Below are positions 1,379 to 50,931 of a stretch of DNA of 57,816 nucleotides, piece after piece. The notes under the pieces are model-generated. The model had not been told where the DNA came from and ran no database searches. It was given only the letters and a program-made list of their open reading frames with translations. The stretch is taken from assembly GCA_964440495.1 (NCBI GenBank), contig CAYTSD010000004.1:1-57816 (forward strand), given 5' to 3'. The first letter of the stretch is position 1, and each line of letters opens with the position of its first letter. Made by a program: the position numbers and the translations under genes. The stretch comes from an uncultured Nitrososphaeria archaeon. Lineage in GTDB: Archaea > Thermoproteota > Nitrososphaeria_A > Caldarchaeales > Wolframiiraptoraceae.

Positions 1379-1459
1379 CTCCTTCGCCTCAACTTGGGTT
1401 GAATCCTTAAATTTTCTGCGTCGGCTGCGGCTTAGAGACCTTCAAGGAGGTTAAAGAGG

Positions 1460-2482
1460 TTGCGGATAATCTTAGCTGGATTCGGGGTCGTTGGGAGAAG
1501 CCTCCTCGAGATAATAGGGGAGAGAGGTGGAGAACTGAGGAGGCTCTACGGCCTAAACCCACGTTTCGTCGCCATAGTCGATAGAGGAGGAGCCGCAGTA
1601 TCTGAGCAAGGCTTAGAGCCTCTACAAGCCCTCCAAGTTAAGAAGCTTAAGAAAACAGTGGCGGAGTATCCTGAGCTAGGTAGAAGAGGTCTAGGGGTTG
1701 AGGATGTCTTGGATGATGTCGAGGCAGATATCTACATAGACGCTACCCCCACAAACATTATCGACGGAGAGCCGAGCTACACTTATCTACGCAAAGCCCT
1801 CGCCAAGAAGCTCCACGTGGTGACCGTTAATAAGGGGCCCTTAGCTCTAGCTCTCCCAGCCTTAAAGGAGATCGCCAATCATAGAAGAGTGATTCTGAGG
1901 TTCAGCGGCAGCGTCGGCGGCGGAATGCCTGTAATAGAGTTTGCCCGTCAATGCGCGATGGGTGACAGGGTCATAAGGGTTGAAGGAATATTGAATGGGA
2001 CAACGAACTATATTCTCACAAGGATGGAGGAGGATGGGCTGAGCTTCGAGAAGGCTCTTAGGGAGGCTCAGGAAAAGGGATTCGCTGAACGCGACCCCAC
2101 ACTAGACATAAAGGGGCTTGACACAGCAGCAAAATTAGTAATCCTAGCAAATGAGGTTCTGGGAATAAAGTCAACGATACAGGATGTTAAGATAAAGGGA
2201 ATCGATGAGATAAGGTTAGAGGATGTGGAGAAAGCCGCGGAGAGAGGAGAGGTGATAAGGCTTCTGGGGAAGGTTGACGGAGGGTTAAGGGTTGAGCCTA
2301 CGGCAATAAGACGTGAAGACCCCCTCGCAGTCAAATATGCTATGAACGCCGTAGCATTCCATACAGAGAACTCTGGGCGACACATCATAACTGGGAAGGG
2401 AGCCGGAGGAAGGGAAACAGCTACAGCAATTATAAGAGACCTAATCCAGATTAAGGCCACCATCACCAGGGGAGGAATCTAA
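1460..2482 (+). CDS. hom: homoserine dehydrogenase
   Basis: N-terminal Rossmann motif ILAGFGVVGRS, VNKGPLA and GILNGTTNYIL motifs. TTG start preceded by GGAGG. Immediately upstream of aspartate kinase. Confidence 0.85.
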   Translation: MRIILAGFGVVGRSLLEIIGERGGELRRLYGLNPRFVAIVDRGGAAVSEQGLEPLQALQVKKLKKTVAEYPELGRRGLGVEDVLDDVEADIYIDATPTNIIDGEPSYTYLRKALAKKLHVVTVNKGPLALALPALKEIANHRRVILRFSGSVGGGMPVIEFARQCAMGDRVIRVEGILNGTTNYILTRMEEDGLSFEKALREAQEKGFAERDPTLDIKGLDTAAKLVILANEVLGIKSTIQDVKIKGIDEIRLEDVEKAAERGEVIRLLGKVDGGLRVEPTAIRREDPLAVKYAMNAVAFHTENSGRHIITGKGAGGRETATAIIRDLIQIKATITRGGI

Positions 2483-2483
2483 A

Positions 2484-3896
2484 ATGAGGATTGTAATGAA
2501 GTTTGGTGGAACATCTCTTGGAGACGGTGAGAAAATAAGGAGAGCGGCGGAACTACTCAAGCATTATCTTGATGAAAATGAGGTAGTCGCTGTCTGTTCA
2601 GCGATGAACGAAGTCACAGACAAGCTCTTCAACCTAGTCGACAAAGCATCGAGAGGAAGGAGAAAAGATGTTGAACGTATTCTGTCGGAGTTCTCCGAGA
2701 CCCATGAGAGAGCCGTAGAAGACGCGTTGAAGAACCCTGAGATCAAGGATGAAGTTAAGAGAAGTCTTGGCCGCGACCTTGAGGAGCTTAGGAGAGCGAC
2801 GCTCGGAGTCCTCTATCTTAGGGAGGCTACACCGAGGTCACGTGACTACATCGTATCCTTCGGCGAGAGGCTTTCAACCAGAATCTTCTGGGGAGCCTTG
2901 AGAGAGCTCGGCGTTGAGGCCGAATATCTGGATGGAGGCTCAGCTGGGATAATCACGGACTCAAACTTTGGTGAGGCAACCCCATTAATGGAGGTCACCA
3001 GACTTGAGGTTAAGAGAAGGGTTGGAGCGCTACTAGACCAGGGGGTCACACCCGTCGTCACCGGATACATGGGGGTTAACGAGGAGGGAGTCGTGACAAC
3101 TCTCGGTAGAGGAGGCTCAGACTACACAGCAACCATACTGGGATTCTGCCTCGAGGCCGACGAGGTCTGGCTCTGGAGCGACGTCGACGGGCTGATGACA
3201 GCAGACCCAAGAATCGTCAAAGACGCCCAAGTCCTGCCAAGCGTATCCTACAGCGAGGCCATAGAGATGGCGCTCTTCGGGGCGAAAGGCCTCCACCCCC
3301 GCGCCCTCGAGCCAGCGATGCAAGCTGGAATAATCGTTAGAATCAGGAACACATTCAACCCATCCAACCCAGGGACTATAATAACCTCAAAGCCTAAGAA
3401 GATGGGTGCGGTCGTTAAGGCAGTCCTACTCGTCAGAGATGTAGCCATGCTAACTGTTAAGGGTGCAAGCATGGTCGGGAAACCTGGAACAGCTGCAAGG
3501 ATTCTCTCAACCCTAGCGCAGAAAGGAGTTAACATCAAGATGATCTCTCAAAGCGTCTCGGAGTCAGGTATATCGCTGATAGTTCCGAGAAGAATGTTGA
3601 GCAGGGCTTTAAGCAGTCTTGAGACCTCCCTTCTAGGAGGAGGGGTTGTCAAGGAGATTGAGGCTGAGGATGATGTCAACGTTGTGGCCGTAGTGGGAGA
3701 AGAGATGAAGGGGACGCCGGGAGTTGCTAGCAGAGTATTTGGAGCCGTAGCCTCAAGAGGGATAAACATACGTATGATAGCCCAAGGCTCCTCAGAGCTT
3801 AACATCTCCTTCGTAGTGAAGGAGGAGGATGGAGCAGAGGCCGTTAGAGCAGTCCACGAAGAATATCAGTTGAATAGGCTGGGGCTTCAACCTTGA
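2484..3896 (+). CDS. lysC: aspartate kinase with C-terminal ACT domains
   Basis: KFGGTSL N-terminal motif, GRGGSDYTA, and a tandem ACT-like C-terminus (VAVVGEEM, INIRMIAQGSSELNISF). Starts 2 nt after hom. Confidence 0.9.
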   Translation: MRIVMKFGGTSLGDGEKIRRAAELLKHYLDENEVVAVCSAMNEVTDKLFNLVDKASRGRRKDVERILSEFSETHERAVEDALKNPEIKDEVKRSLGRDLEELRRATLGVLYLREATPRSRDYIVSFGERLSTRIFWGALRELGVEAEYLDGGSAGIITDSNFGEATPLMEVTRLEVKRRVGALLDQGVTPVVTGYMGVNEEGVVTTLGRGGSDYTATILGFCLEADEVWLWSDVDGLMTADPRIVKDAQVLPSVSYSEAIEMALFGAKGLHPRALEPAMQAGIIVRIRNTFNPSNPGTIITSKPKKMGAVVKAVLLVRDVAMLTVKGASMVGKPGTAARILSTLAQKGVNIKMISQSVSESGISLIVPRRMLSRALSSLETSLLGGGVVKEIEAEDDVNVVAVVGEEMKGTPGVASRVFGAVASRGINIRMIAQGSSELNISFVVKEEDGAEAVRAVHEEYQLNRLGLQP

Positions 3897-3925
3897 AATA
3901 ACACCTCGAACAACATTCTATAGGC

Positions 3926-5065
3926 TTGATAAGAGTTCAGGAGAAGGCTTGCAGCATCTGTGGAACGAGGTCAAGGCTCATCTCAGAGGCTATAGGAGTC
4001 TGTGTAAAGTGTCTAAGAAATAGAAGCGAGGAGGCATTAAGAATAGTTGAAGAAAAACATGCTAGAAGCAGAAAGCTGTTTGGTTTACCTGCTAAGCCTC
4101 CGAGAACGTCTGGAGGGATAAGATGCGTAATCTGCTCTAATGAATGTGTAATTGGAGAGGGTGAGAGGGGATACTGTGGGTTGAGGAAGAATATTGGAGG
4201 AAAGATAGACTCAATCGTGGACTCGGAGCATGGGCTGCTACACTATTACTTAGACCCACATGTAACCAACTGCTGCGCGGCATGGTTCTGTCCAGCTGGC
4301 ACTGGAGCAGGTTACCCGAGATACGCTGTTAGAAGCGGGGCGGAATACGGCTACTACAATCTCGCCCTATTCTTCTATGGATGCAACTTCAACTGCCTCT
4401 TCTGCCAGAACTGGACTCACAAGAAGATAGAGGAAGGTAAGCTTGTAAGTGTCGACGAGCTTGTTGAGAAAACATTACTTAATCAGAGGATTACTTGCTG
4501 GTGCTGGTTCGGCGGCTCTCCTGAACCTCAGCTACCCTTCGCAATAAATGCATCTAGAAGGATATTGGAGGAGAAGCCTAAAAGCAGGGTTATGAGAATA
4601 TGTTTTGAGTGGAATGGAAGCGGAAACCCTGCTCTTGTTAAGAGAGCTGCGGAGCTCTCCTATGAGAGCGGAGGGAACATAAAATTCGATTTAAAGGCAT
4701 TCACTCCATCCATTCACAAGGCATTAACCGGTCAAGACAATAAGCAGGCTTTACACAACTTCGAGATGATTTATAGAGAGTTTTATGAGAGGAGGAGGGA
4801 GGTGCCTGTTCTAACCGCTACGACGCTTCTCGTCCCACATTATGTTGACGCCGAAGAGGTTGAGAAGATAGCTGAGTTCATAGCAGACCTAAGCCCCGAT
4901 ATACCATACAGTCTACTAATATTTCACCCAGATTTCATGATGAGCGATGTAACCGTCACTCCCAGGAGGCAGGTTGAGGAATGCTATAAAGCTGCTTCAA
5001 AGCATCTGAAAAATGTAAACATCGGGAATATCTCTCTTCTCGGATTGGCTGAGGCTGGACTATAG
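3926..5065 (+). CDS. radical SAM protein, PflA/AmmeMemoRadiSam-like, with N-terminal Cys-rich zinc-ribbon extension
   Basis: CxxxCxxC cluster [11 protein letters not shown]. Upstream are [23 protein letters not shown] and an extra N-terminal CSICG...CVKC. TTG start. Confidence 0.7.
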
Positions 5066-6136
5066 TCTCCATTCAACCGGCATGAATCTATAGCGTCGAT
5101 AGGTTGCCGGAGGCCTTCCCACGACAGCAATCGGATAGCCGCAGAACTTGCATCTATTCTTCTCATCTAGATGCCACTGGGTTATGTCGAAGCCCTCTCT
5201 AGCGATTACGAGTTTACCGCATCCCGGGCAATAGGTGTTCTCGTAGGGATGGCCTGGAACATTCCCAACATAGACGTAGTTCATCCCCTCCTCCTTAGCA
5301 ACCTTCCAATGACGCTCCAGAGTCTCAACAGGAGTCCAAGGAAAATTCATCATCCTATAATCAGGGTGAAACCTCAGGAAATGAATGGGAACATCTGGGC
5401 CAAGATTATCATGAACCCATCGAACAAGTTTTCTAGCAGCATCCAAGCTGTCTCCAACACCTGGGACAACAAGGTCTGTTATCTCTATGTGGACGTTGGT
5501 TTTATCTCTTAGTTCAAGCAATGTTTGGAAGACAGGCTCTACGTCGGGTATTCCAATGTATTTTCTGACGAAACTTGTTTCCCCATTTCCCTTGAAGTCA
5601 ACTGTGGCTGCGTCGAGGAAGTCTTTAGCCTCATTGACTGCTTCAGGGGTCCAATAACCATTTGTAACGAAGACGTTTATCAGCCCCTCCCTCCTCGCTA
5701 TAACCCCTACATCATGAGCGAACTCCATGAATATTGATGGCTCATTATAGGTGTATGCTATGCCGTGGCTTCCATAGTTTCTAGCCATCTTAACCACGAT
5801 CTCCGGGGTTACGTCGACACCCTCAACCTTTCTACGTTGACTAATGTCATAGTTTTGGCAGTATTGGCACATCCAGTTGCATCCCGTAGTCGCTATCGAG
5901 AAAACACTTGACCCAGGCATGTAATGCATTAGGGGCTTCTTCTCAATTGGGTCAACATGAGCCGTTATTATCTTTCCATACACGAGCAGGTAAAGTGTTC
6001 CATCAACATTTTTCCTTACGCCGCAGAATCCAACCTGACCTGGTTTAAGCCTACAGTATCTTGCGCATGCAGTGCACTTAATCCTTCCGTCGGGAAGTTT
6101 TTCATAGAGCCGAGCAGGCTTTCCTGAAACCTCCAT
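5060..6136 (-). CDS. amrS: AmmeMemoRadiSam system radical SAM enzyme-like protein
   Basis: [23 protein letters not shown] followed by the radical SAM cluster [16 protein letters not shown]-terminal zinc ribbon CPGCG...CKFCG. Confidence 0.7.
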
Positions 6137-6212
6137 AATGCTTCATAGACTAGGTTCTCAGCTCCTCTTATAAGCATTAATCTATAAGCCCGCCCAGTAA
6201 TTCATACTGGAG

Positions 6213-6644
6213 TTGAAGGGGATATACATCCTCCTCCTCAGGGTCAAGAAGCATCTTAGGATTAGAGTTGGGTCTCTGGGAGTAGTAGACTTCGATGAGG
6301 GTGAATATGTTTACGTCGGCTCTGCTCAAAACAGTGTTGAGAAGAGGCTGAGGAGACATCTAAGAAAGAGAAAGCCCCTTAGATGGCATATAGACTACCT
6401 CACCGCAAACCCCTATGTACAGATTCTCAACGCATCCATTTTCCCGCTTTCAAAACCTTATGAATGTAAGGCCGCAAAGATAATATCTTCTATTGGAGAA
6501 ACCTACCCTATTCCAAGGTTTGGCTCCACTGACTGTAGATGTAGGTCTCATCTTTTCAGGATAAACACATCCTTTAGAAGAATAATATCCCGTTTAGAGA
6601 GTGAATTTAAGACCAAGTCTCTTGGCGCTGATCTGCCGAGATAG
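6213..6644 (+). CDS. DUF123 / GIY-YIG nuclease superfamily protein
   Basis: GIYILLL...GEYVYVGSAQNSVEKRLRRHL...RWHIDYL matches the DUF123 (GIY-YIG-like) pattern. TTG start. Confidence 0.55.
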   Translation: MKGIYILLLRVKKHLRIRVGSLGVVDFDEGEYVYVGSAQNSVEKRLRRHLRKRKPLRWHIDYLTANPYVQILNASIFPLSKPYECKAAKIISSIGETYPIPRFGSTDCRCRSHLFRINTSFRRIISRLESEFKTKSLGADLPR

Positions 6645-39266: not shown

Positions 39267-40385
39267 ATGAGAGAATTGGAGAGGCTTGCGGCTGAACGTG
39301 CGCGGGACGCTGTTCAGCTCGATAAGAAGGGTCTAAAGAAGGAGGCTGCGCGAAGATACCGTGAGGTTATCAGGCTTCTCTCGAGAATAATTGAGCTGAC
39401 CGAGGACCCGATTATGAGGGGGGTCTACGAGGAGAAGCTGAAGCAGTATAAGAATAGGCTTGAAGTCCTCGGGGAGGCTGAAGCAGAAGGAGAGCCATCG
39501 GTGAAGACAAAGACCGTGAAGACATCCGATGAACCCTACATCCTCAAGGAGCCGCTCCAAGTCACATGGGATGATATAATAGGATTAGAGGATGCGAAGA
39601 AGGCTGTTAAGGAGAGTATAATCTACCCCACGAAGAGGCCAGACCTTTTCCCGCTAGGCTGGCCACGTGGAATCCTGCTTTTCGGCCCACCCGGATGTGG
39701 GAAGACTATGCTTGCAGCCGCCGTTGCTAGGGAGATTGACGCAGTCTTCATGCAGGTTGACGCCTCGATAATAATGTCTAAGTGGCTTGGAGAGTCTGAA
39801 AGGAATGTTGCAAACATCTTCAAAGTTGCGAGAAAATATGAGTCTGAGGGTAAGCCTGTGATAATATTCATCGATGAAGCCGATTCCCTTACAGCCTATC
39901 GGTGGAATGAGGTTGGAGGAGAGGCGAGGGCGAGAAACCAATTGATAAAGGAGATGGATGGACTCCTAGACAAGGGTAAGAAGAGCTACATCTACGTTCT
40001 CGCAGCCACGAATAAGCCCTGGCTTCTCGACGAACCATTCATAAGAAGATTTCAGAGAAGAATCTTCATAGGTTTACCTGACTATGAGACGAGGCTTAAG
40101 ATGCTTGAATACTATACGAGTAGACTTGAACTAGATGAGGATGTCAAGTTAAGTGAGATTGCGAGGATGACCGACGGATACTCCGGAGCAGATATACATG
40201 ACATTTGCATGGAGGTTCAGATGAAGGTTGTAAGCGAGTTCTTCGAGAAGGGAAGCGGCGAGGATAATAAGCCCAGGAAGATAAGCATGTCAGACTTCAT
40301 CGATGTAATCAAGAGAAGGAAGCCTAGCGTCGATCTAGATACTATGAGGAAGATGCTTGAATGGGCTTCAAGATTCGGAGCCTAA
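39267..40385 (+). CDS. cdvC: Vps4-like AAA+ ATPase CdvC (N-terminal MIT domain)
   Basis: MIT-like three-helix N-terminus, Walker A GPPGCGKT, Walker B IIFIDEADS, and ATNKPWLLDEPFIRRF second region of homology. Confidence 0.85.
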   Translation: MRELERLAAERARDAVQLDKKGLKKEAARRYREVIRLLSRIIELTEDPIMRGVYEEKLKQYKNRLEVLGEAEAEGEPSVKTKTVKTSDEPYILKEPLQVTWDDIIGLEDAKKAVKESIIYPTKRPDLFPLGWPRGILLFGPPGCGKTMLAAAVAREIDAVFMQVDASIIMSKWLGESERNVANIFKVARKYESEGKPVIIFIDEADSLTAYRWNEVGGEARARNQLIKEMDGLLDKGKKSYIYVLAATNKPWLLDEPFIRRFQRRIFIGLPDYETRLKMLEYYTSRLELDEDVKLSEIARMTDGYSGADIHDICMEVQMKVVSEFFEKGSGEDNKPRKISMSDFIDVIKRRKPSVDLDTMRKMLEWASRFGA

Positions 40386-41171
40386 AGCCTCCCTTCCAAC
40401 AAGCTCTATCACGCCCTTCCTCTCCAACTCCTCTAAAATCTCCTTGACCTCTTCAACATCTATCCCAAGCTCCTTCGAGCATTCATAGACGTCTATCTCA
40501 TCCTTCTTTGAGACGTAGGAGTAAACCTTTCTCTCTTTCTCGGTCAGCTGAGGCACATCTGGGAAGGAGCTCTTAACCTTCTCCGCAGCCTTCTCCTGCG
40601 CCTCCCTAAGAATCTTGACAGCTTCCTCGTCAAGCTCACTCATAGTTATCGGCGACAGCTCACCTTGAGTTGAGGATGATGTAAACTCTTCGATGCATTC
40701 AGCGAGCTCGTGGAGGCTTTGAGCTGCTTCTGGGACCACTCCTGCAACCTCGTCTTCAACCTCTGTGAGGAGTGAGAGCAAGGGGACGACTAAACCTATG
40801 ACTTCACTTATCTCAAGGATTGTCTCAAGCCTAAGCTTAACCTGCTCCAAGACAAGCTGCGTCTTCATGACCATGCTTGCAAGCCTTCTAACCTCGGCTA
40901 TCTCCTCAGCATAGATTGCGGCTCTCCCCTCATCCTTATTCACTAAGGCGTCGATAACCCTCTCGAAGTACTCCCTGCTTCGGGAGACCATCTCGGCATA
41001 CTTGTATCTAAGTTTCTCGATTTGAGCGTTTAAAGCAGAGAGAGAAGCCTCCAACCTACGTTTAAGCTCTTCCCTCGCCTCCTCATCCATGAATGGGTCT
41101 CCACCCAGCTCTCCGTCTCCTATCATTAACCTAGCCGAGGCTGAGAGCCGAAGCTTTATACCCTTTACCAA
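40368..41171 (-). CDS. cdvB: ESCRT-III-like protein CdvB with C-terminal winged-helix domain
   Basis: Snf7-like helical hairpin core followed by YSYVSKKDEIDVYECSKELGIDVEEVKEILEELERKGVIEL. The track start is TTG 41171. ATG 41126 and ATG 41090 are alternatives. Confidence 0.7.
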   Translation of the reverse strand: MVKGIKLRLSASARLMIGDGELGGDPFMDEEAREELKRRLEASLSALNAQIEKLRYKYAEMVSRSREYFERVIDALVNKDEGRAAIYAEEIAEVRRLASMVMKTQLVLEQVKLRLETILEISEVIGLVVPLLSLLTEVEDEVAGVVPEAAQSLHELAECIEEFTSSSTQGELSPITMSELDEEAVKILREAQEKAAEKVKSSFPDVPQLTEKERKVYSYVSKKDEIDVYECSKELGIDVEEVKEILEELERKGVIELVGREALGSES

Positions 41172-41339: not shown

Positions 41340-43160
41340 ATGTGCGGTATAACTGGATGCGCGGCCAAGGGGATTCAAGTCTCACCTCTCCTCCACAAGT
41401 CTCTTAAGAGATTAGAGTATAGAGGTTATGACTCAGCAGGCATAGCAACAGTCTATAATGGGAAGATCTACGTCAAGAAAGATGTAGGCAAGATAGATGA
41501 GATACATAAAAGACTAAACCTAGACGACCTTCCTGGATCTATTGGGATAGCTCATACAAGGTGGGCGACGCATGGAGCGCCGTCCAAGGTTAATGCTCAT
41601 CCTCACATAGATTGTAAGGGGGAGCTGGCGATAGTTCATAATGGGGTCATAGAGAACTTTCTTGAACTGAAGCAGGAGCTCCTCGATAGGAAGCATGAAT
41701 TTGCCTCGAGAACAGATACTGAGGTAATCGCTCACCTGATAGAGGAGTATCTAAAGATGGGTAGAGGTTTCTTCGACGCGGTTAGGGAGGCTGTTAGAAG
41801 ACTTAAGGGAAGCTATGCAATAGCAGTAATCTACTCTAAAGAGCCTGACAAGATAGTTGTGGCTAGGCAGGAGTCTCCGTTAGTTATAGGGCTTGGAGAT
41901 GGAAAGAATTTTGCTGCAAGCGATGTAGCGGCGTTCATAGAGTATACGAATAAGGCTATCTTTCTTCAGAATGGTGAGATGGCTGAGGTCACGGCTGACA
42001 AAGTTAAACTGGTTAGAATAGATACTGGTGTGGAGTTTGAGAGGAAGCCGACGACTCTTGAATGGAGTATCGAGATGGCTGAGAAAGGCGGCTACCCGCA
42101 CTTCATGTTAAAGGAGATTCATGAGCAGCCTCACAGTCTCAGAGAGGCCTTGAAAGCCCAGCAACAATATATCGACCTCCTCGCAGAGTTCCTCGATAGA
42201 AGTAGGGACACCTTGCTCCTCGCAGCTGGAACATCCTACAACGCCTGCGTCGCCGCATCATATCTCTTCTCAAAGATTGCTCGTCTAACAACTTATCCAG
42301 TGATAGCCTCAGAATATATTGAGAACTATGGAGCTTCATCGGGTGTCGACACGGTTATTCTCGCTGTAAGCCAGTCTGGTGAGACGGCGGATGTCTTAAA
42401 CGCCTTGGAGTATGCGAGGATGAGGGCTGCTACAATACTTGGATTGACGAATGTTGTAGGCTCGACCCTTACCAGGGTTGCGAGAGCCTATGTTCTCCAG
42501 AACTCGGGCCCCGAGATAGGGGTTGCAGCAAGCAAGACCTTTACGGCTCAGCTAATGGTTCTCTCAATGCTTGGTCTTAGGCTTGCTAGGAAGAGGGGGA
42601 AGCTGGCCCAGTATGAGATAGATGAGCTTAAGGAGGAGCTGCGTAGAGTTCCAGAACTCGTTGAGAAAGCTTTGAAAATCTCTGAGGAGCCTATAAAGAA
42701 GCTTGCCAAAGAGCTTGCAAACTCTTCCAGCATCTTCTTCCTTGGAAGAGGGATAAACTATGCAACAGCCCTCGAGGCCAGGCTCAAAATCATGGAGCTA
42801 TCCTACATACCATGTATAGCTTATCCAGCGGGTGAAAGCAAGCATGGCCCGATAAGCGTTATCGAGAAGGATTATCCAGTATTCTTCATCGCTCCAAACG
42901 ACTCCACCAGGAAGCATGTTATTGGAAACATTATGGAGATGAAGGCTAGGGGTGCCAAGATATACTGTGTTGGAACCGAGGGTGATGAGGAACTCAAGAA
43001 GCAGTGTGATTGGTTCCTTGGTCTGCCGAAGGTTCACGAGATTCTAAGCCCAATAGTCTATGTGATACCCTTCCAGCTTCTCGCATACTACATGGCTGTT
43101 GAAAAGGGATATAATCCCGACATGCCGCGGAATTTGGCGAAGTCTGTAACCGTTCTTTAG
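41340..43160 (+). CDS. glmS: glutamine--fructose-6-phosphate aminotransferase
   Basis: N-terminal MCGI nucleophile, two SIS domains, and C-terminal ...RNLAKSVTV-type end. Confidence 0.9.
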   Translation: MCGITGCAAKGIQVSPLLHKSLKRLEYRGYDSAGIATVYNGKIYVKKDVGKIDEIHKRLNLDDLPGSIGIAHTRWATHGAPSKVNAHPHIDCKGELAIVHNGVIENFLELKQELLDRKHEFASRTDTEVIAHLIEEYLKMGRGFFDAVREAVRRLKGSYAIAVIYSKEPDKIVVARQESPLVIGLGDGKNFAASDVAAFIEYTNKAIFLQNGEMAEVTADKVKLVRIDTGVEFERKPTTLEWSIEMAEKGGYPHFMLKEIHEQPHSLREALKAQQQYIDLLAEFLDRSRDTLLLAAGTSYNACVAASYLFSKIARLTTYPVIASEYIENYGASSGVDTVILAVSQSGETADVLNALEYARMRAATILGLTNVVGSTLTRVARAYVLQNSGPEIGVAASKTFTAQLMVLSMLGLRLARKRGKLAQYEIDELKEELRRVPELVEKALKISEEPIKKLAKELANSSSIFFLGRGINYATALEARLKIMELSYIPCIAYPAGESKHGPISVIEKDYPVFFIAPNDSTRKHVIGNIMEMKARGAKIYCVGTEGDEELKKQCDWFLGLPKVHEILSPIVYVIPFQLLAYYMAVEKGYNPDMPRNLAKSVTVL

Positions 43161-44605
43161 ACCCTTTCCCTAAGCTTGAAGAAGAGCCTCGTCTCACCCA
43201 TAGTCTTCAGAGGCATCTCCCTAACCTTCACAACGATAGGCAGGTCGTTCACCATCCTACCTATCATTAGGCAGTATCTTGGGGGGAGCGCCTTCGCAAT
43301 TCTCTTGGCGGTCTCAGAGTCTACTCTAGAAGCCTTCGAGATGTATTCTAGGTCTGATTCATTCGTGAAGTTGAAGAGGAAGATGTTGTCAGCCTGTCTA
43401 TAAACGGTCTCGGGTATCATGTCAGGCTGATTTGTGACGAAGATTGGGAATAGGCCTGTATGCCTCATCCTCGTAACAAGGTCATCCCAGTAGGTTTCCC
43501 TTAGATAGAGGTGAGCCTCCTCAGCGACGAGAAAAATCGGGTCTACTCTACCTTCTCTTAGAAGACTTGACAGCTTGCTCAGAAGATACTCCACTATTAT
43601 TCTTCTGCCGCTTGGAATGGTCTTCGAGAGGTTGACAACGATTATTCCTCCATCCTCCATATTGTTTAGGGTTTCCTCCAAGTTTGTTGCCTCTTCTTCG
43701 CTGAAGAATTGAGTTGAGTTGAGGCTCAGTAATCTGCTCATCAACGCTTCTCTAACCGATTCATGCATCTGAGCTCTTCCAGCGGCCTCTATTAACCCCC
43801 GTAGGCTCACCCTTCCCTTAACTCTCTTCACGGTTCCCCATAGTCGGATGAATTCTCTGAGGCTTGCGGCTGGAGTGTTTAGGACATGTTGAAGTATGTC
43901 GAGTATTGTTCCAAGCCCTGCGTCTTCTATGGATGCCTTGAAGTTTTCACCTGGGTTTAGAACTAGATGCTTGTCGGCGACCCCGCTTCTACCTCCGTCC
44001 AATCTTGTTGAGAGCCCAACATATTCTCCGTTAATGTCCAGTACAACTATCTTTGCACCGTATTCTGCTAGGGAGGTTACGAGAAGCTTTGCTAGATGAG
44101 ATTTACCGGTCTCCTTCTTCCCAGTGATTATTGTCAGTCTACCGTCGAAGGCCTCGGCGTTCACGGTCAGTATCCCGCCCATACACTCACCTATCACTAT
44201 AGGTCTTCTCCCACCGATGCTTGAGAGCTCAGCTATCAGCTCTGGGGATGCATGCTCTATCCTGGAGCCGAGTTTTGAGGGAAGCCAGAGGAGGTCGCTG
44301 CGCAATCCATCTCCATCGACTACTCCCCGGAGCTTCGCAACAACTATTCGGGCATCTCTAAGACCGGCTACAAGGGAGCCTACACCATAGGGGTCTATCA
44401 ACCTTGTTGAAAGCTCCTCGGAGCCAAGCTCTCTTAGAGCATCCTCAAGCCCCCCTGGAAGCTCGGCGTAGTCTACGTCTATGACTTGGAGGAGGAGACG
44501 TCTCCTACCATCCACTGCTTGGAGGTAGTCCCCACGCTGGAGGGGCTTCTCATCTGGGGCGGCGAGGAGCTCAACCAGGTCACCGCTCTTGGATAGAAGC
44601 TTCAT
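43157..44605 (-). CDS. HerA/FtsK-superfamily (DUF87-type) ATPase, divergent HerA-like
   Basis: N-terminal barrel-like segment (GDYLQAVDGRRRLLLQVIDV), Walker A ITGKKETGKSHLAK, Walker B IFLVAEEAHLY, and VTNQPDMIPETVYRQADNIFLFNF (HerA-type sensor region). ATGA overlap with the upstream NurA-like gene. Confidence 0.7.
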   Translation of the reverse strand: MKLLSKSGDLVELLAAPDEKPLQRGDYLQAVDGRRRLLLQVIDVDYAELPGGLEDALRELGSEELSTRLIDPYGVGSLVAGLRDARIVVAKLRGVVDGDGLRSDLLWLPSKLGSRIEHASPELIAELSSIGGRRPIVIGECMGGILTVNAEAFDGRLTIITGKKETGKSHLAKLLVTSLAEYGAKIVVLDINGEYVGLSTRLDGGRSGVADKHLVLNPGENFKASIEDAGLGTILDILQHVLNTPAASLREFIRLWGTVKRVKGRVSLRGLIEAAGRAQMHESVREALMSRLLSLNSTQFFSEEEATNLEETLNNMEDGGIIVVNLSKTIPSGRRIIVEYLLSKLSSLLREGRVDPIFLVAEEAHLYLRETYWDDLVTRMRHTGLFPIFVTNQPDMIPETVYRQADNIFLFNFTNESDLEYISKASRVDSETAKRIAKALPPRYCLMIGRMVNDLPIVVKVREMPLKTMGETRLFFKLRERV

Positions 44606-45645
44606 CTAAACACCTCCCCGTCCACCGGGTTGAAGAGGAGGTCGCGAATCGAGGTTGGGTGGATTATCTCGACGCTCCTCCTGCGAAGCATGGCTTGGAT
44701 TGCCAGTACGTCGAGCTTGCTGAAGGTGCAGTAGTCGTGGGCTAGGATGAGGGTCTCAGGGTAGCCATACACTAGGGCATCGCTTCGGAGGAGGCTTCCG
44801 AAGACCCTTTCCGCGGAGGCGGTTATGCTGGCGTCAACCCTGAACCCGCTGCATCCGGGGCAGAGCCTGGCCAAGAATATGTCTCCTAGGACTCGAACCC
44901 TCATCTCAGCGCTCCTGACAGCTTGGGTGACCTCGACTAGGTAGGGTGGCTCAGCCTCGGCGCCCAAGGTTGTTAGAAGCTCACCCCAAACCCTTAGAAC
45001 ACTAGTCTTAGAGAAGGCGAGAATATCGTTTCCCCGAGGCCTGGCCTTCTCGAGAATCCTGCCTACTAGGTAGAGGGGGTTGTCTAGGGGGCCTGCGGAG
45101 AGGGAGCCGTCGAAGAGGAGTATGCTGTCGGTATAGTGTTCGGCGGCGTACTCCTGCATCCGTTTCTCGATTAGGCCTGCCATCACCCTCTGGATGGAGT
45201 TGTAGAGCTGGTAGTTTCCCCAGGCTTCGAGGGGGGCGGCGCCGAGAACCGAGGCGAGAAGCTCTCCCATGTTCTCGTAGCTCACATAGAAGACCAGTGG
45301 GCCGAGGACCTCGACAGCTGTTTTGGAGCGGTCTCGGGTTACGATGGCCCCCCTAACGGCTATGACTACGCCTCTCGACCCTGCCGCAACCCTTATCGAG
45401 GAGGTGTCTATGGCCACGACAGGGCGTCTAGGCGCCTCAAGCTCAGGTTGAATTATCTCAACGGCTCCTTCTCCCCGGCCCTCCAGAAAGGCTATACAGC
45501 ACTCATCTTGAACAATATTCTCAACACCACCAGCGTAAAGCCTGAGGCCGTCGACCTTCTCTAGGCTTCGGAGACTGCTCTCAAGGAAAGCTTTAAAATA
45601 GCTTTGTGAGGCTTCTATTTGGGGTTGTTGGCTTTGGAGGGTCAT
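44602..45645 (-). CDS. NurA-like nuclease domain protein
   Basis: NurA-type motif series: VVAIDTSS (motif I Asp), LLFDGSLS, AFSKTSVL, and YGYPETLILAHDY. Confidence 0.6.
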   Translation of the reverse strand: MTLQSQQPQIEASQSYFKAFLESSLRSLEKVDGLRLYAGGVENIVQDECCIAFLEGRGEGAVEIIQPELEAPRRPVVAIDTSSIRVAAGSRGVVIAVRGAIVTRDRSKTAVEVLGPLVFYVSYENMGELLASVLGAAPLEAWGNYQLYNSIQRVMAGLIEKRMQEYAAEHYTDSILLFDGSLSAGPLDNPLYLVGRILEKARPRGNDILAFSKTSVLRVWGELLTTLGAEAEPPYLVEVTQAVRSAEMRVRVLGDIFLARLCPGCSGFRVDASITASAERVFGSLLRSDALVYGYPETLILAHDYCTFSKLDVLAIQAMLRRRSVEIIHPTSIRDLLFNPVDGEVFR

Positions 45646-45681
45646 GCCGCAGTTTCCCCTTGTTTATTGGGGTTTGCTGTG

Positions 45682-45690
45682 CTTATAAAT
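45682..45690 (+). promoter_or_regulatory. TATA box for the 45717 gene (leaderless-type spacing)
   Basis: CTTATAAAT ends 27 nt before ATG 45717. Lies in the 71-bp divergent spacer shared with the NurA-like gene. Confidence 0.4.
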
Positions 45691-45716
45691 GTTGCTCAAC
45701 TTGAGCATGATGAAAA

Positions 45717-46136
45717 ATGAACGAGCAGGAAAAAATCAAGGTTGAGGTCACGATAGGGCCTGCCACGGTCAGGGTTGAGGCTCCACCCGATAAGTTGGAG
45801 GAGGCTTTGAGGCAGGTTGTCTCGGCTCTTAGGGCCGCCCTCCCCCAGTTGATGGTTGAGGAAGAGCGGAGGGAGAGGGTTAGGAGGAGACCTCAGCCCA
45901 CATGCGCATCTCTTCTCCGCCAACTCATAGAGGAGGGGTGGTTTGATAGGCCTAGAAGCCTCTCGGAGACCACGCAAGAGCTTGCTAGAAGAGGCTACAA
46001 CTATGACTCAACCGCGGTCTCCCACACCCTCCTAGACCTGGTTAGGGAGAGGGTTCTCGTTAGGGAAGGCTCGCCCAGACGCTACGTGTATTACAGGCCT
46101 GAGGGCAGGGTGGCTGAGCGGGAGGAGCGGGTCTAA
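45717..46136 (+). CDS. small winged-helix protein, paralog family member 1 (unknown function)
   Basis: N-terminal KIKVEVTIGPATVRVEAPPDKLEEALRQVVSAL motif shared with the next three genes. C-terminal wHTH-like RSLSETTQELARRGYNYDSTAVSHTLLDLVRERVLVREGSPRRYVYY. Confidence 0.5.
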   Translation: MNEQEKIKVEVTIGPATVRVEAPPDKLEEALRQVVSALRAALPQLMVEEERRERVRRRPQPTCASLLRQLIEEGWFDRPRSLSETTQELARRGYNYDSTAVSHTLLDLVRERVLVREGSPRRYVYYRPEGRVAEREERV

Positions 46137-46633
46137 GGCTTCTCACCAGTCTGGCCATACTTCTCGAGCACACGCTTTATCCCAAGCTGGGTTATGGTGT
46201 AGTCGCCTCTATCCAGCCTCCTAAGCATCCCACGTTGAACAAGCTCGGACAGCCTGCCTGACACGGTCTTCTCGCTCTTGGAGAGGCTTCGGCTAAGCTC
46301 CGAGAGGTTCACCGTCGGGCTCTCCCTCCTACCGAGGCTATGCTCGAGATGGCTTCGGAGGGCTAGGAGGAGGACTGCGTCCGTGACTGGGAGGTCGTCG
46401 AGGTTCTGGAGGAAGAAGAGGCCCTCGCTCTCCTCGTAGGCTATGAGGCCGCCCAAGCTCTCAAGAACCTCTTGGAGGCCGACGCTGTAGGCTATCTTCT
46501 TGGCAAGCGAGTAGGCTGGGATAACCTTCTCGAGGAAGGCGACTACCTGTCGATAGACCTCCTCGGGCGCTCCAGAGAACTCCGCCTCAAGCTCCCCATA
46601 CCTTATGCTGACCCTAAGCTCATCTTCCTTCAT
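46133..46633 (-). CDS. small winged-helix protein, paralog family member 2 (unknown function)
   Basis: ELRVSIRYGELEAEFSGAPEEVYRQVVAFLEKV N-terminal motif. C-terminal wHTH VNLSELSRSLSKSEKTVSGRLSELVQRGMLRRLDRGDYTIT. Confidence 0.55.
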   Translation of the reverse strand: MKEDELRVSIRYGELEAEFSGAPEEVYRQVVAFLEKVIPAYSLAKKIAYSVGLQEVLESLGGLIAYEESEGLFFLQNLDDLPVTDAVLLLALRSHLEHSLGRRESPTVNLSELSRSLSKSEKTVSGRLSELVQRGMLRRLDRGDYTITQLGIKRVLEKYGQTGEKP

Positions 46634-47106
46634 AGGCTCTCACCGAAGAGCTCTCGGAGCGAGGCTGGTGTAAAGGTGTAGAGCCCCTCCCCCTGTTTCA
46701 CCACTAGGCCTGCTCTCCTAAGCTCGCTCAGCCTTGCCCGGACAACCCTCTCATTAAGCCCCGAGTAGGCTGCAACCTCCTTGGGTGTAAGGGTGTCTTT
46801 CTCGAGGAGGCCTAGAGCCTTCCCCACATAGACGGCGGCCAGGCAGAGGAGTATCTTACGCTTAGCGTCGAGCTCCTTGAGTACCGTCACTCTACCCTCC
46901 CTTATCTCAACCATGCCTGCAAGCCTCTCGGCAAGCTTCTGGACATCGATTGCGCCGACAAGCTTCTTCACCGCCTCTAGGGCTGGATAGAGTTGGGAGA
47001 GATACCTGTTGACGCTTGCCCAGACCTCTTGGTATCCTCCCTCAAACTCTGCCTCCGTCCCTCCATGCCTTATAGTGATCTTGAGAGGTTCTCCGCTCAT
47101 CTTCAC
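46630..47106 (-). CDS. small winged-helix protein, paralog family member 3 (unknown function)
   Basis: PLKITIRHGGTEAEFEGGYQEVWASVNRYLSQL N-terminal motif. C-terminal wHTH LTPKEVAAYSGLNERVVRARLSELRRAGLVVKQGEGLYTFT. ATGA overlaps on both sides. Confidence 0.55.
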   Translation of the reverse strand: MKMSGEPLKITIRHGGTEAEFEGGYQEVWASVNRYLSQLYPALEAVKKLVGAIDVQKLAERLAGMVEIREGRVTVLKELDAKRKILLCLAAVYVGKALGLLEKDTLTPKEVAAYSGLNERVVRARLSELRRAGLVVKQGEGLYTFTPASLRELFGESL

Positions 47107-47552
47107 GCCTCCCTGAACCCGTTCTCAACGAACCTAATTCCCTTCCGCAGAATCCTGAAGACTTTCTTCCCGTTGACTCTACCCGCATCCTCGAACAGCC
47201 TATCTCTGACAAGGTCTCCTACAACGTCTCTAGGGTTGCTTGGGGTCGGCCACCTCGCTTTCCGATAGTATTCCTCGAAGTCGTCGTAGCCTACGTTTCT
47301 ACCCTCCCATTTATAAAGGTAGTAGGCTATAGTTAGGAACCGCTGTGGATGAGATTTTGGGTCAAGCCTGTCCGCGAACTCTATGAAGGAGGGCTTCTCC
47401 CCGGCTTCTCCTCTGCCTCCCTCCATGGCTGAAAGCCTCTCCAACATGGCTTCAAGCCAGCTTAGGTCGCTTAGCTTCGCCTCAACAAACTCTCTGTCAC
47501 CCTCAACCTCGACCTCAACGCCATTCGATAACACTCTAACCCTGTATGACAT
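47103..47552 (-). CDS. small protein, paralog family member 4 (divergent; unknown function)
   Basis: YRVRVLSNGVEVEVEGDREFVEAKLSDLSWLEAML N-terminal motif. The C-terminal half (FLTIAYYLYKWEG...DVVGDLVRDRLFEDAGRVNGKKVFRILRKG) is wHTH-like but divergent. First gene of the three-gene minus-strand operon. Confidence 0.45.
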   Translation of the reverse strand: MSYRVRVLSNGVEVEVEGDREFVEAKLSDLSWLEAMLERLSAMEGGRGEAGEKPSFIEFADRLDPKSHPQRFLTIAYYLYKWEGRNVGYDDFEEYYRKARWPTPSNPRDVVGDLVRDRLFEDAGRVNGKKVFRILRKGIRFVENGFREA

Positions 47553-47587
47553 GTGTGCGCTCCCGCCTGATTTAGGCTAGGAGATTG

Positions 47588-47595
47588 TTATAAGC
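47588..47595 (-). promoter_or_regulatory. TATA box of the three-gene paralog operon (putative)
   Basis: Minus-strand CTTATAAC lies about 36 nt upstream of ATG 47552. Confidence 0.35.
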
Positions 47596-47677
47596 CTTCC
47601 ACAGGGGATTGAAAGTGGGAAAATGGCTTAGGCTTCGGGTTTAGGGCACTCTAAGAGCACTGAAATTAGGTGGGCGG

Positions 47678-49588
47678 CTAATCGGAGGTTTGGCCAGAGC
47701 TGAGATGCTTCTTAACAAGGCTGTAGAGCCTCGCTCCGTCAACCTTCCCACGATACTCCTTCATAAGCTCCCCCATAATCACCGAAGCCGCCTTACCGGG
47801 ATTCCTTTTCACAAGTTCTCCATGCTTCCTGAGAAGAGCGGTAACCCGAGCCTCAACATCCTCCATCCTCACAGGCCTGAGGCCTAGAGCCTCAACCGCC
47901 TCTTCAACGGTCTTCTCAGGATTCTCAGCCAGCCAAGTAAACAGTTTCTCGGCAGCCTCCTTCGCGAGCTCTCCCCGTCCCACCAGCCTGAAAAACCCTA
48001 GGAGGTGTTGATCACTTATCCTCTCAACCTTAACGCCCTCTCTTCGGAGGCTTTTCAGGAGCTCCGTGAGGGTTGAGGCCACAACGCTTGCGGCTACACC
48101 TGTCTCCCCGACAATCCGCTCAAACAGCTCAACGCGCTCGGAGTCTATCAGCTCGTCGGCAATCTGCCTACTAAGCCCATACTTCTCAGCAAGCCTCCCA
48201 GCAACCTCGTCTAGAGTTGGTGGAAGCCTCCTCCTAAGCTCCTCCAAGTAGCTCTCGGAGACAGGGTAAGGCGGGAGATCGGTCTCAGGATACATCCTTG
48301 CGGCTCCAGGTCTAGGTCTTAGGTAGACTGTTGTCCCGTCTGGGCGTGCGCCACGTGTCTCGGATGGGACTCCGCGTAGAGCCTCGGCCGCCCGCTCCCT
48401 CACATACTCCAACGCTTCTCTAGCCCTCTGCTCCTCGTCTGCGACAAAGACTACTGCGTCCTCCTCACCAGCCTCCATCTCACGTCTCAATGCCATAACC
48501 TCCTCAGCGCTGATTCCATAGCCTGGAAGCTCGTCGGTGTGGAAGATTCCCTGAACCTCGGCCCATGCACGCGCCCTTCCCGCAAACTCTGCGCCAAGCC
48601 TGACCCCTGGAGCCGCCTCCAGACCTACTAGGCCTCCGAAGCCTGGGAGCTTGAGGGCTATAACCCTCCCCCCAGCCTTGAGACCCCTCTTCAACACCTT
48701 CGACCCAGTCTTCTCGAATAGGTGTGTAACATCCTTGACTTGGGCTGAGGTTACATCTTCTTCGCTTACCCCACGTTTCCTGAGCTCGTCTCTTATTTTT
48801 AGGAGGTGGAGTTGGCGCTTAACCTCTAGTTCAACAACCTTTGGGAGTAGGCCTAGCTCTTGGACACCCTTAATCTCAACCAGTGCTCCATCCCTAATCG
48901 AGATGTTCAGGTCTTGTCTGACGGTTCCTATTCCTCTCTTCACCTTTCCCGTGGCGCGGAGCAGCCTCCCGATAGCGTAGGCGACCTCAAGCGTCTCCCT
49001 GGGAGAGTTTATCGCAGGGGCTGTCGAGACCTCTATTAGGGGGACTCCAAGCCTGCTTAAGTCGTAGTGAACCTCGTGAGGTTTATGCTCAAGTATTCTA
49101 GCCGCGTCCTCCTCCAAGGTTATCGTCTGTATAGGGATGGTCTTTCCATGAACCTCTATCCTCCCGCCTAGAGCAACTACGCATGTGCGTTGGAAGCCTG
49201 TGGTGTTGGAGCCGTCGATAACTATCTTCCTCATAACGTGTATCTCGTCGACCGGTGTAGCGTTCATTAGGAGGGCTATGGTTAAGGCGACCTCCACTGC
49301 TTCTCTGTTTAGGTCGTGAGGCGGCTCCTCATCCATCTCAACCAGGCAGGTTGACGCAGTGTTTGCGTGATAGACTATCTTCTTACGTTTCTTTGCCTCG
49401 AAGATTGCGGCTGGGTCTACTTCACCTAGCTCGCTCTGGGCTTCCCTAAGCCACCTAACGAATCTAATCTCCCTCCCATCTGTCCTAGAGTCGGTTGGGC
49501 AGTCGCAGAAGAGCTTAGACTTTGTGTCGAGTTGGCGGTGGATTTCGAGGCCTACCTTCAGCCCAAGCTTCTGGTAGTCGAGGGTCAC
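47678..49588 (-). CDS. gatE: Glu-tRNA(Gln) amidotransferase subunit E
   Basis: GLKVGLEIHRQL N-terminus, GatB/E core, and a C-terminal YqeY-like tail. 4-nt overlap with gatD. Confidence 0.9.
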   Translation of the reverse strand: MTLDYQKLGLKVGLEIHRQLDTKSKLFCDCPTDSRTDGREIRFVRWLREAQSELGEVDPAAIFEAKKRKKIVYHANTASTCLVEMDEEPPHDLNREAVEVALTIALLMNATPVDEIHVMRKIVIDGSNTTGFQRTCVVALGGRIEVHGKTIPIQTITLEEDAARILEHKPHEVHYDLSRLGVPLIEVSTAPAINSPRETLEVAYAIGRLLRATGKVKRGIGTVRQDLNISIRDGALVEIKGVQELGLLPKVVELEVKRQLHLLKIRDELRKRGVSEEDVTSAQVKDVTHLFEKTGSKVLKRGLKAGGRVIALKLPGFGGLVGLEAAPGVRLGAEFAGRARAWAEVQGIFHTDELPGYGISAEEVMALRREMEAGEEDAVVFVADEEQRAREALEYVRERAAEALRGVPSETRGARPDGTTVYLRPRPGAARMYPETDLPPYPVSESYLEELRRRLPPTLDEVAGRLAEKYGLSRQIADELIDSERVELFERIVGETGVAASVVASTLTELLKSLRREGVKVERISDQHLLGFFRLVGRGELAKEAAEKLFTWLAENPEKTVEEAVEALGLRPVRMEDVEARVTALLRKHGELVKRNPGKAASVIMGELMKEYRGKVDGARLYSLVKKHLSSGQTSD

Positions 49589-50931
49589 AGCGCCTCAGCC
49601 TCCATTCTAGGCATATTCCTCCCACCAATCTCACCTGCAATCGGCGTGAGCATGAGACGCTTAACCTCATCTGGGTCGCTTGTCTGGGCGAGAGCCCACG
49701 AGAGCTTGACGTAGGCTGTCTCTGGAAGCATGTTGTCGAGAGGCGTTACACCCGCTTTCAAGAGGTCTCGGCCGTTGTCATAGACCCTCATATTCACCCT
49801 ACCCCAGATGCACTGGGATGTCATCCCAACGAAGACCCCCCTCTCCACAAGCCTTCTCACAACTGGTATGAGCCTTGAAGCGACGTGCCCAAGCCCTGTC
49901 CCCTCTAGGATTACTCCCCTAACATGCTTCTCCGTGACTGCCTCAAGAATCTCTGGAGGCATTCCAGGATAGAATTTCACCAGGGCTGCTTCATCGGAGA
50001 ATCCGGGTTTGAAGGTGTAGCCGTCTCCTCCACGTGGGTTCAACCCCTCCTCCCTAACCCGTATATCACCCATCTCGACATAGGCTATCGGACTGGCGTT
50101 CACAGACTGGAAGGCATCCCTACTGCTCGTATGGAGCTTCCTAACCCTCGTCCCCCTATGGACAGCTATCAGGGTATCCGAGTGCCATGCATGCATCGTT
50201 ACACAGACCTCGGCGAATGGGGCGTGGCCTGCAACCTTCACAGCGGCTATCAGATTCGTCGCCGCATCGCTTGAAGGCCTATCGGAGGAGCGTTGAGCGC
50301 CTACGAAGACCACTGGAACCGGGGGCTTTTGGAGGGCGAAGCTCAGGGCTGCGGCCGAGTATCCCATGGTGTCGGTTCCATGCGCTATTACGACGCCGTC
50401 AACCCCTTTTCTTATCAGCTCATCGGCCCTCACAGCCATCTCGTTCCAATGGCTTGGCGTAAGGTTCTCGCTGAAGATTGAGAAGAGTATCTCTGCGTCG
50501 AGGGCAGCTATCTCGGCGAGCTCAGGCACGATTGAGAGGAGGTCCTCGGCTGTGAGAGCAGGCCTAACACCCCCAGTCCTATAATCTATTCTACTCGCTA
50601 TCGTCCCACCCGTACTCATTATCGTTACCTTTGGTAGGCCTGGTCTTGACGGAGGTCTTGGAGGTGGGACGAACCTTGGCTTCACGGCCTCAGCGACCCG
50701 TCTAACCTTTACATCTCCATGAACCCTTATCCCGAGATTGTAGCCATTTGGAAGCTTTAGGACTATGTAGTCTGGCTCGGCGAGCTCGTAGCGTGCCATC
50801 AGAATCCCTCTATAGATGCGGCCATCGACCTCAACCTCGACCTCGTCGCCGACGCTTACACCAGAGGACTCCAGAACCACCCTAATTCTCCCAACGTATC
50901 CCTGAAGCCTCTCATCTCCAGACATTTCCAA
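49585..50931 (-). CDS. gatD: Glu-tRNA(Gln) amidotransferase subunit D (asparaginase-like)
   Basis: STGGTIASRIDYRTGG and HGTDTMGYSAA asparaginase motifs. Archaea-specific partner of GatE. Confidence 0.9.
   Translation of the reverse strand: MEMSGDERLQGYVGRIRVVLESSGVSVGDEVEVEVDGRIYRGILMARYELAEPDYIVLKLPNGYNLGIRVHGDVKVRRVAEAVKPRFVPPPRPPSRPGLPKVTIMSTGGTIASRIDYRTGGVRPALTAEDLLSIVPELAEIAALDAEILFSIFSENLTPSHWNEMAVRADELIRKGVDGVVIAHGTDTMGYSAAALSFALQKPPVPVVFVGAQRSSDRPSSDAATNLIAAVKVAGHAPFAEVCVTMHAWHSDTLIAVHRGTRVRKLHTSSRDAFQSVNASPIAYVEMGDIRVREEGLNPRGGDGYTFKPGFSDEAALVKFYPGMPPEILEAVTEKHVRGVILEGTGLGHVASRLIPVVRRLVERGVFVGMTSQCIWGRVNMRVYDNGRDLLKAGVTPLDNMLPETAYVKLSWALAQTSDPDEVKRLMLTPIAGEIGGRNMPRMEAEAL

Follow-up and report, generated by a model that had tools for sequence, protein, structure and literature searches.

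The window analysed here, a 57,816-nucleotide (nt) stretch of an uncultured Nitrososphaeria archaeon of the Caldarchaeales (family Wolframiiraptoraceae; GenBank assembly GCA_964440495.1, contig CAYTSD010000004.1, positions 1 to 57,816), carries four small adjacent genes, designated A, B, C and D, beside a nurA-herA pair encoding a nuclease and an ATPase of DNA end processing. The four products are diverged paralogs of one family, in which a predicted N-terminal beta-hairpin and helix precede a winged helix-turn-helix (wHTH) domain, and their conserved position beside nurA-herA, described below, suggests that they serve this operon in particular, by regulating or assisting the DNA-end-processing machine. 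The features of the locus are listed by window position, with lengths in amino acids (aa) or base pairs (bp), isoelectric points (pI) and, where they apply, AlphaFold2 (AF2) models with their mean predicted local distance difference test score (pLDDT).

43157-44605, minus strand: herA, encoding a HerA-family hexameric ATPase of 482 aa (Pfam DUF87; PDB 4d2i)
44602-45645, minus strand: nurA, encoding a NurA-family nuclease of 347 aa, divergent from A (Pfam NurA)
45646-45716, no strand assigned: divergent promoter region of nurA and A, 71 bp, recognized from the sequence and conserved in aigarchaeal loci
45693-45707, no strand assigned: candidate operator, the 7-1-7 palindrome TGCTCAAcTTGAGCA, conserved and unique within the window
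45717-46136, plus strand: paralog A, 139 aa, pI 8.9 (AF2 model, family alignment, Pfam)
46133-46633, minus strand: paralog B, 166 aa, pI 5.4 (AF2 model, pLDDT 84; 35 close homologs, all annotated as hypothetical)
46630-47106, minus strand: paralog C, 158 aa from a GTG at 47106 or 156 aa from an ATG at 47100, pI 9.2
47103-47552, minus strand: paralog D, 149 aa, pI 6.0 (no Pfam hit; superfamily alignment)
47553-47677, minus strand: promoter spacer 5' of the D-C-B operon, conserved across D-carrying loci

Judged from the reading frames, D, C and B form one translationally coupled operon, as had been proposed for three of the four genes in the original prediction, which was made from the letters of the window alone. 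B and C overlap by 4 nt (ATGA), and the stop codon of D shares 4 nt with C if C starts at the GTG, or lies 2 nt from its start if that is the ATG at 47100. The ATG is the more likely true start of C because orthologs are 156 aa long and begin MSGEPL, and because GGAGG lies upstream of it. Gene A is on the opposite strand and converges on B, the two stop codons overlapping by 4 nt, and on its other side the start of herA overlaps the stop of nurA by 4 nt (ATGA). Upstream of D lie gatE and gatD, and farther out glmS, a Vps4/CdvC gene and other housekeeping genes. By its homologs, too, the window belongs to Caldarchaeales (Aigarchaeota), within Nitrososphaeria.

The kinship of the four proteins had originally been proposed by eye. 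The N-terminal peptides quoted for it, the motif RLSEL..G.. shared by B and C and the open reading frame (ORF) coordinates all proved correct, and the kinship itself was upheld. Support from the four window sequences on their own is uneven, with clear significance only for B against C (blastp E 1.5e-22, 28% identity over 155 residues); comparison of the N-termini gave E 1e-3 for A with B and 1.5e-2 for C with D. Profiles of the orthologs of each gene, built from 37 related loci and compared by hhalign, relate B to C over the whole length (P 1.8e-23) and place the remaining five pairs at P 2e-4 to 5e-3, always N-terminus on N-terminus and in the same register. Against a superfamily profile of 99 sequences, based on B and C, D was matched at P 5.8e-9 (96% probability, 134 colinear columns including both the N-terminal module and the wHTH region) and A at P 6e-6 (85% probability, 110 colinear columns). 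The scores in these comparisons, 37.5 for A and 54 for D, may be set against a maximum of 21 from 30 column shuffles of each query and 12-14 from reversed profiles. The N-terminal 36-45 residues taken alone scored 34.1 for A and 29.3 for D, with shuffled maxima of 11.1 and 15.5. The shared motif is statistically supported in a proper alignment. Bridging sequences were also found in other lineages: the hidden Markov model (HMM) of A and that of B or the superfamily both match a protein in each of the loci L040 (147 aa), L044 (146 aa) and L046 (160 aa), and a 170-aa protein of L038 is matched by the HMMs of both C and D. A, B, C and D are true diverged paralogs, and the picture of a four-member local family draws on the profiles and their shuffled controls, the bridging sequences and the AF2 models of A and B.

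The models predict a shared layout of an N-terminal beta-hairpin and helix followed by a winged helix. In that of A (pLDDT 76), strands at residues 7-13 and 16-22 and a helix at 27-41 are joined by a basic, low-confidence linker (43-57) to a wHTH at 63-126. In that of B, strands at 6-12 and 15-21 and a helix at 23-37 lead into a middle region of helices and a hairpin (39-74), after which come a wHTH resembling those of MarR and ArsR (83-147) and a last helix at the C-terminus; C has the same architecture as B, and the wHTH region of D, for which there is no Pfam hit, is supported by the superfamily profile alignment. Most invariant positions of B fall within its N-terminal 45 residues, making the module the most conserved part of that protein. 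A is the most conserved member of the family and the only invariant one, its alignment retaining 26 invariant positions down to 37% identity.

The view that the N-terminal module is not a named domain was borne out. A profile of 45 modules found only noise among PDB sequences, such as designed proteins; a Pfam scan of the 45 N-terminal peptides gave scattered matches above E 0.01 (DUF2604, Prok_Ub, PqqD and HMA), none of them recurrent; NCBIfam gave no match for the module; and when the complete models of A and B were searched with Foldseek in PDB and BFVD, the wHTH alone aligned. A His-Me (beta-beta-alpha-metal) nuclease was considered for the module and rejected by inspection, since it has no conserved His, Asn or Cys. 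We infer that it serves in oligomerization.

Two residues of the A family deserve mention. A single invariant cysteine, Cys63 (45903-45905), stands in a TC motif at the start of the wHTH, and an invariant His103 (46023-46025) lies in the recognition helix; one A subgroup has an additional cysteine in the N-terminal hairpin (EIECD). Cys63 may act as an OhrR-type thiol switch with one cysteine, coupling the control of nurA-herA to oxidative damage.

None of the four proteins matched a well-described family with a known stand-alone function, in keeping with the original prediction; the hits were to generic wHTH domains. Foldseek related the A and B models with probabilities of 0.99-1.0 to the wHTH domains of MarR, ArsR, PadR and Fur proteins. 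The HOP2 winged helix was also among the matches, all of which had E-values of 4e-3 or above and alignments limited to the wHTH (template-modelling score normalized by query 0.3-0.4). A narrowly passes the Pfam cut-off for HTH_27 (E 1.6e-4, 22.3 bits against 22.2), and B and C lie below all Pfam cut-offs. Among 36 B/C members, MarR_2 was matched in 15 and HTH_5 in nine (E < 0.01), and Pfam and PADLOC together gave weak MarR, ArsR, TrmB and Csa3-wHTH matches. Existing annotations of family members read 'hypothetical' or are generic guesses at ArsR or PaaX.

The likeness to MarR, ArsR and PadR regulators extends to a canonical C-terminal wHTH with recognition helix and beta wing in the A and B models, and to the gene layout, in that A diverges from its presumptive target operon with a palindrome over its own promoter, as is usual for repressors. 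In contrast, the N- and C-terminal dimerization helices of MarR, and the alpha1 and alpha5 helices and metal sites of ArsR, are absent from the models of A and B. A beta-hairpin and helix without Pfam or PDB match stands in their place, most Pfam scores fall below the gathering cut-offs, and the family occurs as one to four clustered paralogs tied to nurA-herA. A relationship to the tandem winged-helix proteins of the KITE/MukE-JetB group (DUF4194) was also considered for B, whose residues 49-148 aligned weakly with DUF4194 in a single long Pfam match (E 1.1e-3) and whose middle region of three helices and a hairpin could be a degenerate first winged helix. However, no SMC or kleisin gene lies nearby, and the candidate was rejected as DUF4194 was matched in only one of 36 family members.

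The HerA-NurA complex consists of a hexamer and a dimer that resect DNA ends (PMC3326311, PMC5715905); it is essential in the thermophilic archaea so far tested (PMC4351679), and in the classical operon herA-nurA is joined to mre11-rad50 (PMC2288612). In Pfam, the nurA product of the window scores 24 bits for NurA (E 3.2e-5), above the cut-off of 21. The herA product matches DUF87 at E 8.8e-13, with Walker A GKKETGKS and Walker B LVAEEAH, and its best PDB match is Sulfolobus solfataricus HerA (4d2i; E 2.6e-8, residues 122-470). As in Sulfolobus and Pyrococcus, a NurA nuclease and a HerA ATPase with intact Walker motifs are encoded by a translationally coupled pair; unlike there, wHTH paralogs take the place of mre11-rad50 beside them, and the window HerA is distant from that of Sulfolobus. 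It forms a distinct clade, to which the models for Thermoprotei HerA, anti-phage HerA and CedD are about equally distant. Neither Mre11 nor Rad50 is encoded among the genes annotated around the cluster or in any related locus examined, and there is no Rad50-sized ORF anywhere in the window, where the longest ORF is 636 aa. Full-text literature searches found no accessory wHTH subunit, winged-helix partner or dedicated regulator of HerA-NurA.

Nothing tells more about the family than its link to NurA-HerA, which was absent from the original prediction. Across the 37 aigarchaeal loci, the genes for A, B, NurA and HerA adjoin one another wherever the contig extends far enough, four truncated loci aside; C is present in most of the 37, and D only in an aigarchaeal subgroup in which the genes adjoin GatE. 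Between flanking genes that are unrelated, the module is found again in Caldarchaeum, Bathyarchaeia, Geothermarchaeales and other Nitrososphaerota. Metagenomes scanned with the profile of A yielded 80 loci, with A identity down to 36%; counting in each case the loci with enough flanking sequence, NurA lies beside A in 59 of 59, HerA in 50 of 50 and a B/C-like gene in 59 of 68, and A is divergent from nurA-herA in 59 of 59. The number of family members per locus is one in eight loci, two in 10, three in 12 and four in 17, and the B-C operon of some lineages has, in third place, a gene resembling A and not D. Because NurA and HerA are always present where they could be scored, paralog number varies and exceptions exist, the invariant core is A with NurA and HerA, and B, C and D are frequent but dispensable.

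A combined B and C profile searched against 1.84 billion representatives (clusters at 50% identity) found 666 relatives at E < 1e-3 and 161 at E < 1e-10; among the 148 sequences retrieved from the best 150 of the 666, 97 are 150-200 aa long. The family is lineage-specific, occurring in Nitrososphaeria, including Aigarchaeota (Caldarchaeales), in Geothermarchaeales and in Bathyarchaeia. Rare fusions join a B-like domain to a Ser/Thr protein kinase (P0133, 535 aa), to DUF488 (P0251, 326 aa) and, in two cases, to domains of no known family; they were set aside as a functional clue, being too few and too varied.

Some loci depart from the common arrangement. In close relatives of the window (L051, Ga0272445_1000020 1535-6429; also L048, L049, L052, L057 and L058), A is about 70% identical, the glmS-herA-nurA order is the same and A stands alone beside NurA-HerA, with no B, C or D within 6 kb. 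In two loci of Bathyarchaeia type, a protein of about 235 aa without Pfam match is encoded between the A-like gene and the B-like operon (L040 5171-5866 and L045 3162-3872, both on the minus strand; mutual E 2e-59), and the conserved neighbours of 231-268 aa in Bathyarchaeia loci had no Pfam match. L128 (809-3756) has five tandem small genes, including one for a 369-aa fusion protein similar to that of L043 described below.

The 71-bp region between A and nurA has the organization expected of a divergent promoter. A TATA-like AATAAA for nurA is found at 45663-45668 on the minus strand and a TATA box, TTATAA, for A at 45683-45688. Only 4 nt separate this TATA box from the perfect 7-1-7 palindrome TGCTCAAcTTGAGCA downstream of it, and 9 nt separate the palindrome from the ATG of A. 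Archaeal repressors usually act between TATA box and start point. The spacer is 71 bp long in the window and in most orthologous loci, and its sequence is conserved as well, at about 50% identity of the proteins. In 30 distinct orthologous spacers the palindrome is perfect in 13 and present within two mismatches in 19, and its TATA-proximal half, GTTGCNCAA, is kept in nearly all. No second copy occurs within two mismatches in the window, the sole other match having three, which is at chance level. A-like genes of other lineages carry TTGCGCAA or TTGTTGA-N4-TCAACAA repeats next to the TATA box.

The spacer upstream of D contains a TATA box (TTATAA) at 47588-47593. D-upstream spacers of D-carrying loci (L003-L034) share CAYTTTCR about 13 nt upstream of the transcription factor B recognition element and TATA box, and GAGCAC right before the ATG. 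They also share GTGC-N7-GTGC direct repeats, one helical turn apart, just after the stop codon of gatE. GTGCTC resembles the half-site of the A palindrome.

From the paralogy of the four proteins, their hairpin-helix and wHTH layout, the strict linkage of A to nurA-herA, the conserved palindrome and the coupling of D, C and B, the reading we favour, with a probability of about 0.5, is that A is a dimeric local regulator of the divergent A/nurA-herA promoter, whereas oligomers of B, C and D, assembled by means of the module common to all four, modulate DNA binding. A dimer of A would bind the palindrome between its own TATA box and start site and repress its own leaderless transcript. Given the spacing of only about 20 bp between the two TATA boxes, it would additionally tune the divergent nurA-herA promoter. 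The coupled operon would supply B, C and D in fixed ratio, and these would pair with one another, possibly also with A, through the N-terminal module, altering which DNA is bound or when A releases it.

The original prediction had preferred a hetero-oligomeric DNA-binding assembly to four independent regulators. Such an assembly is plausible, the shared module and the coupled operon speaking in its favour. As a fixed assembly of four subunits it does not hold generally, however, because related loci have anything from one to four paralogs and D is confined to a single aigarchaeal subgroup. Nor is the opposition to regulators supported for A, given its constant divergence from nurA-herA and the conserved palindrome between its TATA box and start codon.

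Several observations weigh against A as a local regulator with B, C and D as its modulators. Perfect copies of the palindrome are confined to the clade of the window; in other clades the TATA-proximal half alone persists, and because of this part of the conservation may be that of core-promoter sequence. The wHTH of A is conserved beyond what is usual for local regulators, which would equally fit a structural partner of HerA-NurA. Four paralogous regulators for a single two-gene operon are unusual. Lastly, family members can occur away from the pair. In L044 an A-like/B-like pair lies next to gatDE without NurA-HerA, and in L043 a B-like domain is fused to a region of about 200 residues without known domain, beside an XPB-like helicase and away from NurA-HerA. 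The latter locus (1082-5592) encodes the 376-aa fusion protein and two small proteins (one of them a family paralog), then the XPB-like helicase (ResIII/ERCC3_RAD25_C) and a 258-aa protein without Pfam match.

A less probable role, though the main rival of the first, is that A-D are structural accessory subunits of a variant HerA-NurA, acting as recognition or loading factors that would dock on HerA or NurA by the N-terminal module and guide the complex to particular DNA ends or sites. Transcriptional autoregulation would then be a side function. FtsK gamma, which recognizes KOPS through its winged helix, and AspA or SegB, centromere-binding proteins which work with ParA-type ATPases, are site-specific DNA-binding adaptors and could serve as functional analogues. 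The analogy is one of function only, to a small site-specific winged-helix binder encoded with or fused to an ATPase of the FtsK-HerA or ParA kind and having a site at its own promoter; beyond the generic wHTH, these proteins have no sequence or fold relation to A-D. The invariant linkage across deep lineages, the very strong conservation of A, the coupled expression of D, C and B and the standing of this HerA as a distinct clade are all consistent with such a role, as is the B-like domain beside a second type of helicase in L043. So is the finding that, unlike the classical operon (PMC2288612), no locus examined includes mre11-rad50, although Mre11-Rad50 may be encoded elsewhere in these genomes. 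The HerA genes of L040 and L041 (1-3525, minus strand), 1318 aa long, contain an intein and LAGLIDADG domains, and this too favours a place in the core machinery. Inteins are typical of essential or core DNA-metabolism genes. The variation in copy number from one to four tells against subunits, and the divergent orientation of A and its operator-like palindrome have the look of a plain regulator.

In a stronger and slightly more doubtful form of the same idea, Nitrososphaeria and Bathyarchaeia would have a distinct HerA-NurA machine in which A-D are obligate subunits for DNA targeting or loading. Homo- and hetero-oligomers built by the N-terminal module would attach to HerA or NurA, the choice of DNA would fall to the winged helices, and the proteins would fill the recruiting role of the Mre11-Rad50 linkage in the classical operon.

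Two further readings fit the data less well than regulation or accessory subunits. In the first, which is unlikely, A-D are ordinary independent wHTH transcription factors that arose by local duplication, control unrelated regulons and sit beside nurA-herA (and gatDE) by inherited synteny. The wHTH matches are indeed generic, some members are annotated as ArsR or PaaX, the adjacency of gatD-gatE is equally conserved without an obvious functional tie, and B-like genes occur apart from NurA-HerA in L044. However, the adjacency of A to NurA-HerA persists where all flanks differ, in Caldarchaeum, Bathyarchaeia and Geothermarchaeales, and holds to the lowest identity at which A was found; the shared, conserved N-terminal module and the translational coupling also favour joint action.

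The second, that the six genes (a HerA-type ATPase, a nuclease and HTH regulators) are an anti-virus defence or mobile-element module, is very improbable: HerA has weak PADLOC matches (mad8 E 1e-17; HerA defence models E 1e-10 to 1e-12), the wHTH of B and C resemble those of Csa3 and AbiEi in PADLOC, and HerA-NurA pairs accompany some archaeal cas cassettes (PMC3973734), but the neighbourhood in the window is one of housekeeping genes (glmS, gatDE, vps4) with no adjoining cas, integrase or defence gene, the module shows no patchiness, being nearly universal across the order and in conserved synteny, NCBIfam HerA_antiphage scored 43.6 bits against a cut-off of 800, PADLOC had no match for NurA, A or D, and for A-D the searches of PHROGs and of phages (tblastn) brought up nothing but generic wHTH matches. 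The lead towards MADS (mad8/mad1) from PADLOC was dropped, nothing relevant having come from the literature search.

To our knowledge, the recruitment and control of HerA-NurA are poorly understood, and we know of nothing reported on them for Nitrososphaeria or Bathyarchaeia. What is new here is a protein family that neither Pfam-A nor NCBIfam covers and for which no structure has been solved (the 161 cluster representatives mentioned above), together with its N-terminal module, a candidate operator and a strict genomic partnership with HerA-NurA, which offer an entry to the regulation or loading of an archaeal repair machine. Should A-D be plain local repressors, this would be a useful annotation and no surprise; should they be HerA-NurA subunits, they would constitute a previously unknown class of accessory factors for archaeal DNA end processing or chromosome handling.

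A few features of the wider neighbourhood may be recorded. An Rfam scan of 43000-50000 matched no RNA element. The gatD-gatE pair (47678-50931 in the window), at times with elp3, is a neighbour of the paralogs not only in the clade of the window but also in Geothermarchaeota and one further lineage (L044 1-2544; L127 16-3263), an old synteny block without obvious functional reason. On the other side of the cluster, a 267-aa protein (40368-41171, minus strand) adjoins the Vps4/CdvC gene (39267-40385, plus strand). Its sole Pfam match is a C-terminal TrmB-type wHTH, and Pfam does not recognize it as CdvA; in L003 and L004 an ortholog (E 5e-91; L003 9656-10393) stands between HerA, which it immediately follows, and Vps4. 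The protein might be one more gene product conserved beside the cluster, or it might act in cell division. Finally, genes for an Ogg-type 8-oxoguanine glycosylase (helix-hairpin-helix) and an RsmB-like methyltransferase directly follow HerA in Caldarchaeum (L001 9422-10974) and in another Nitrososphaerota lineage (L042 9384-11050), a further hint of a DNA-repair context.

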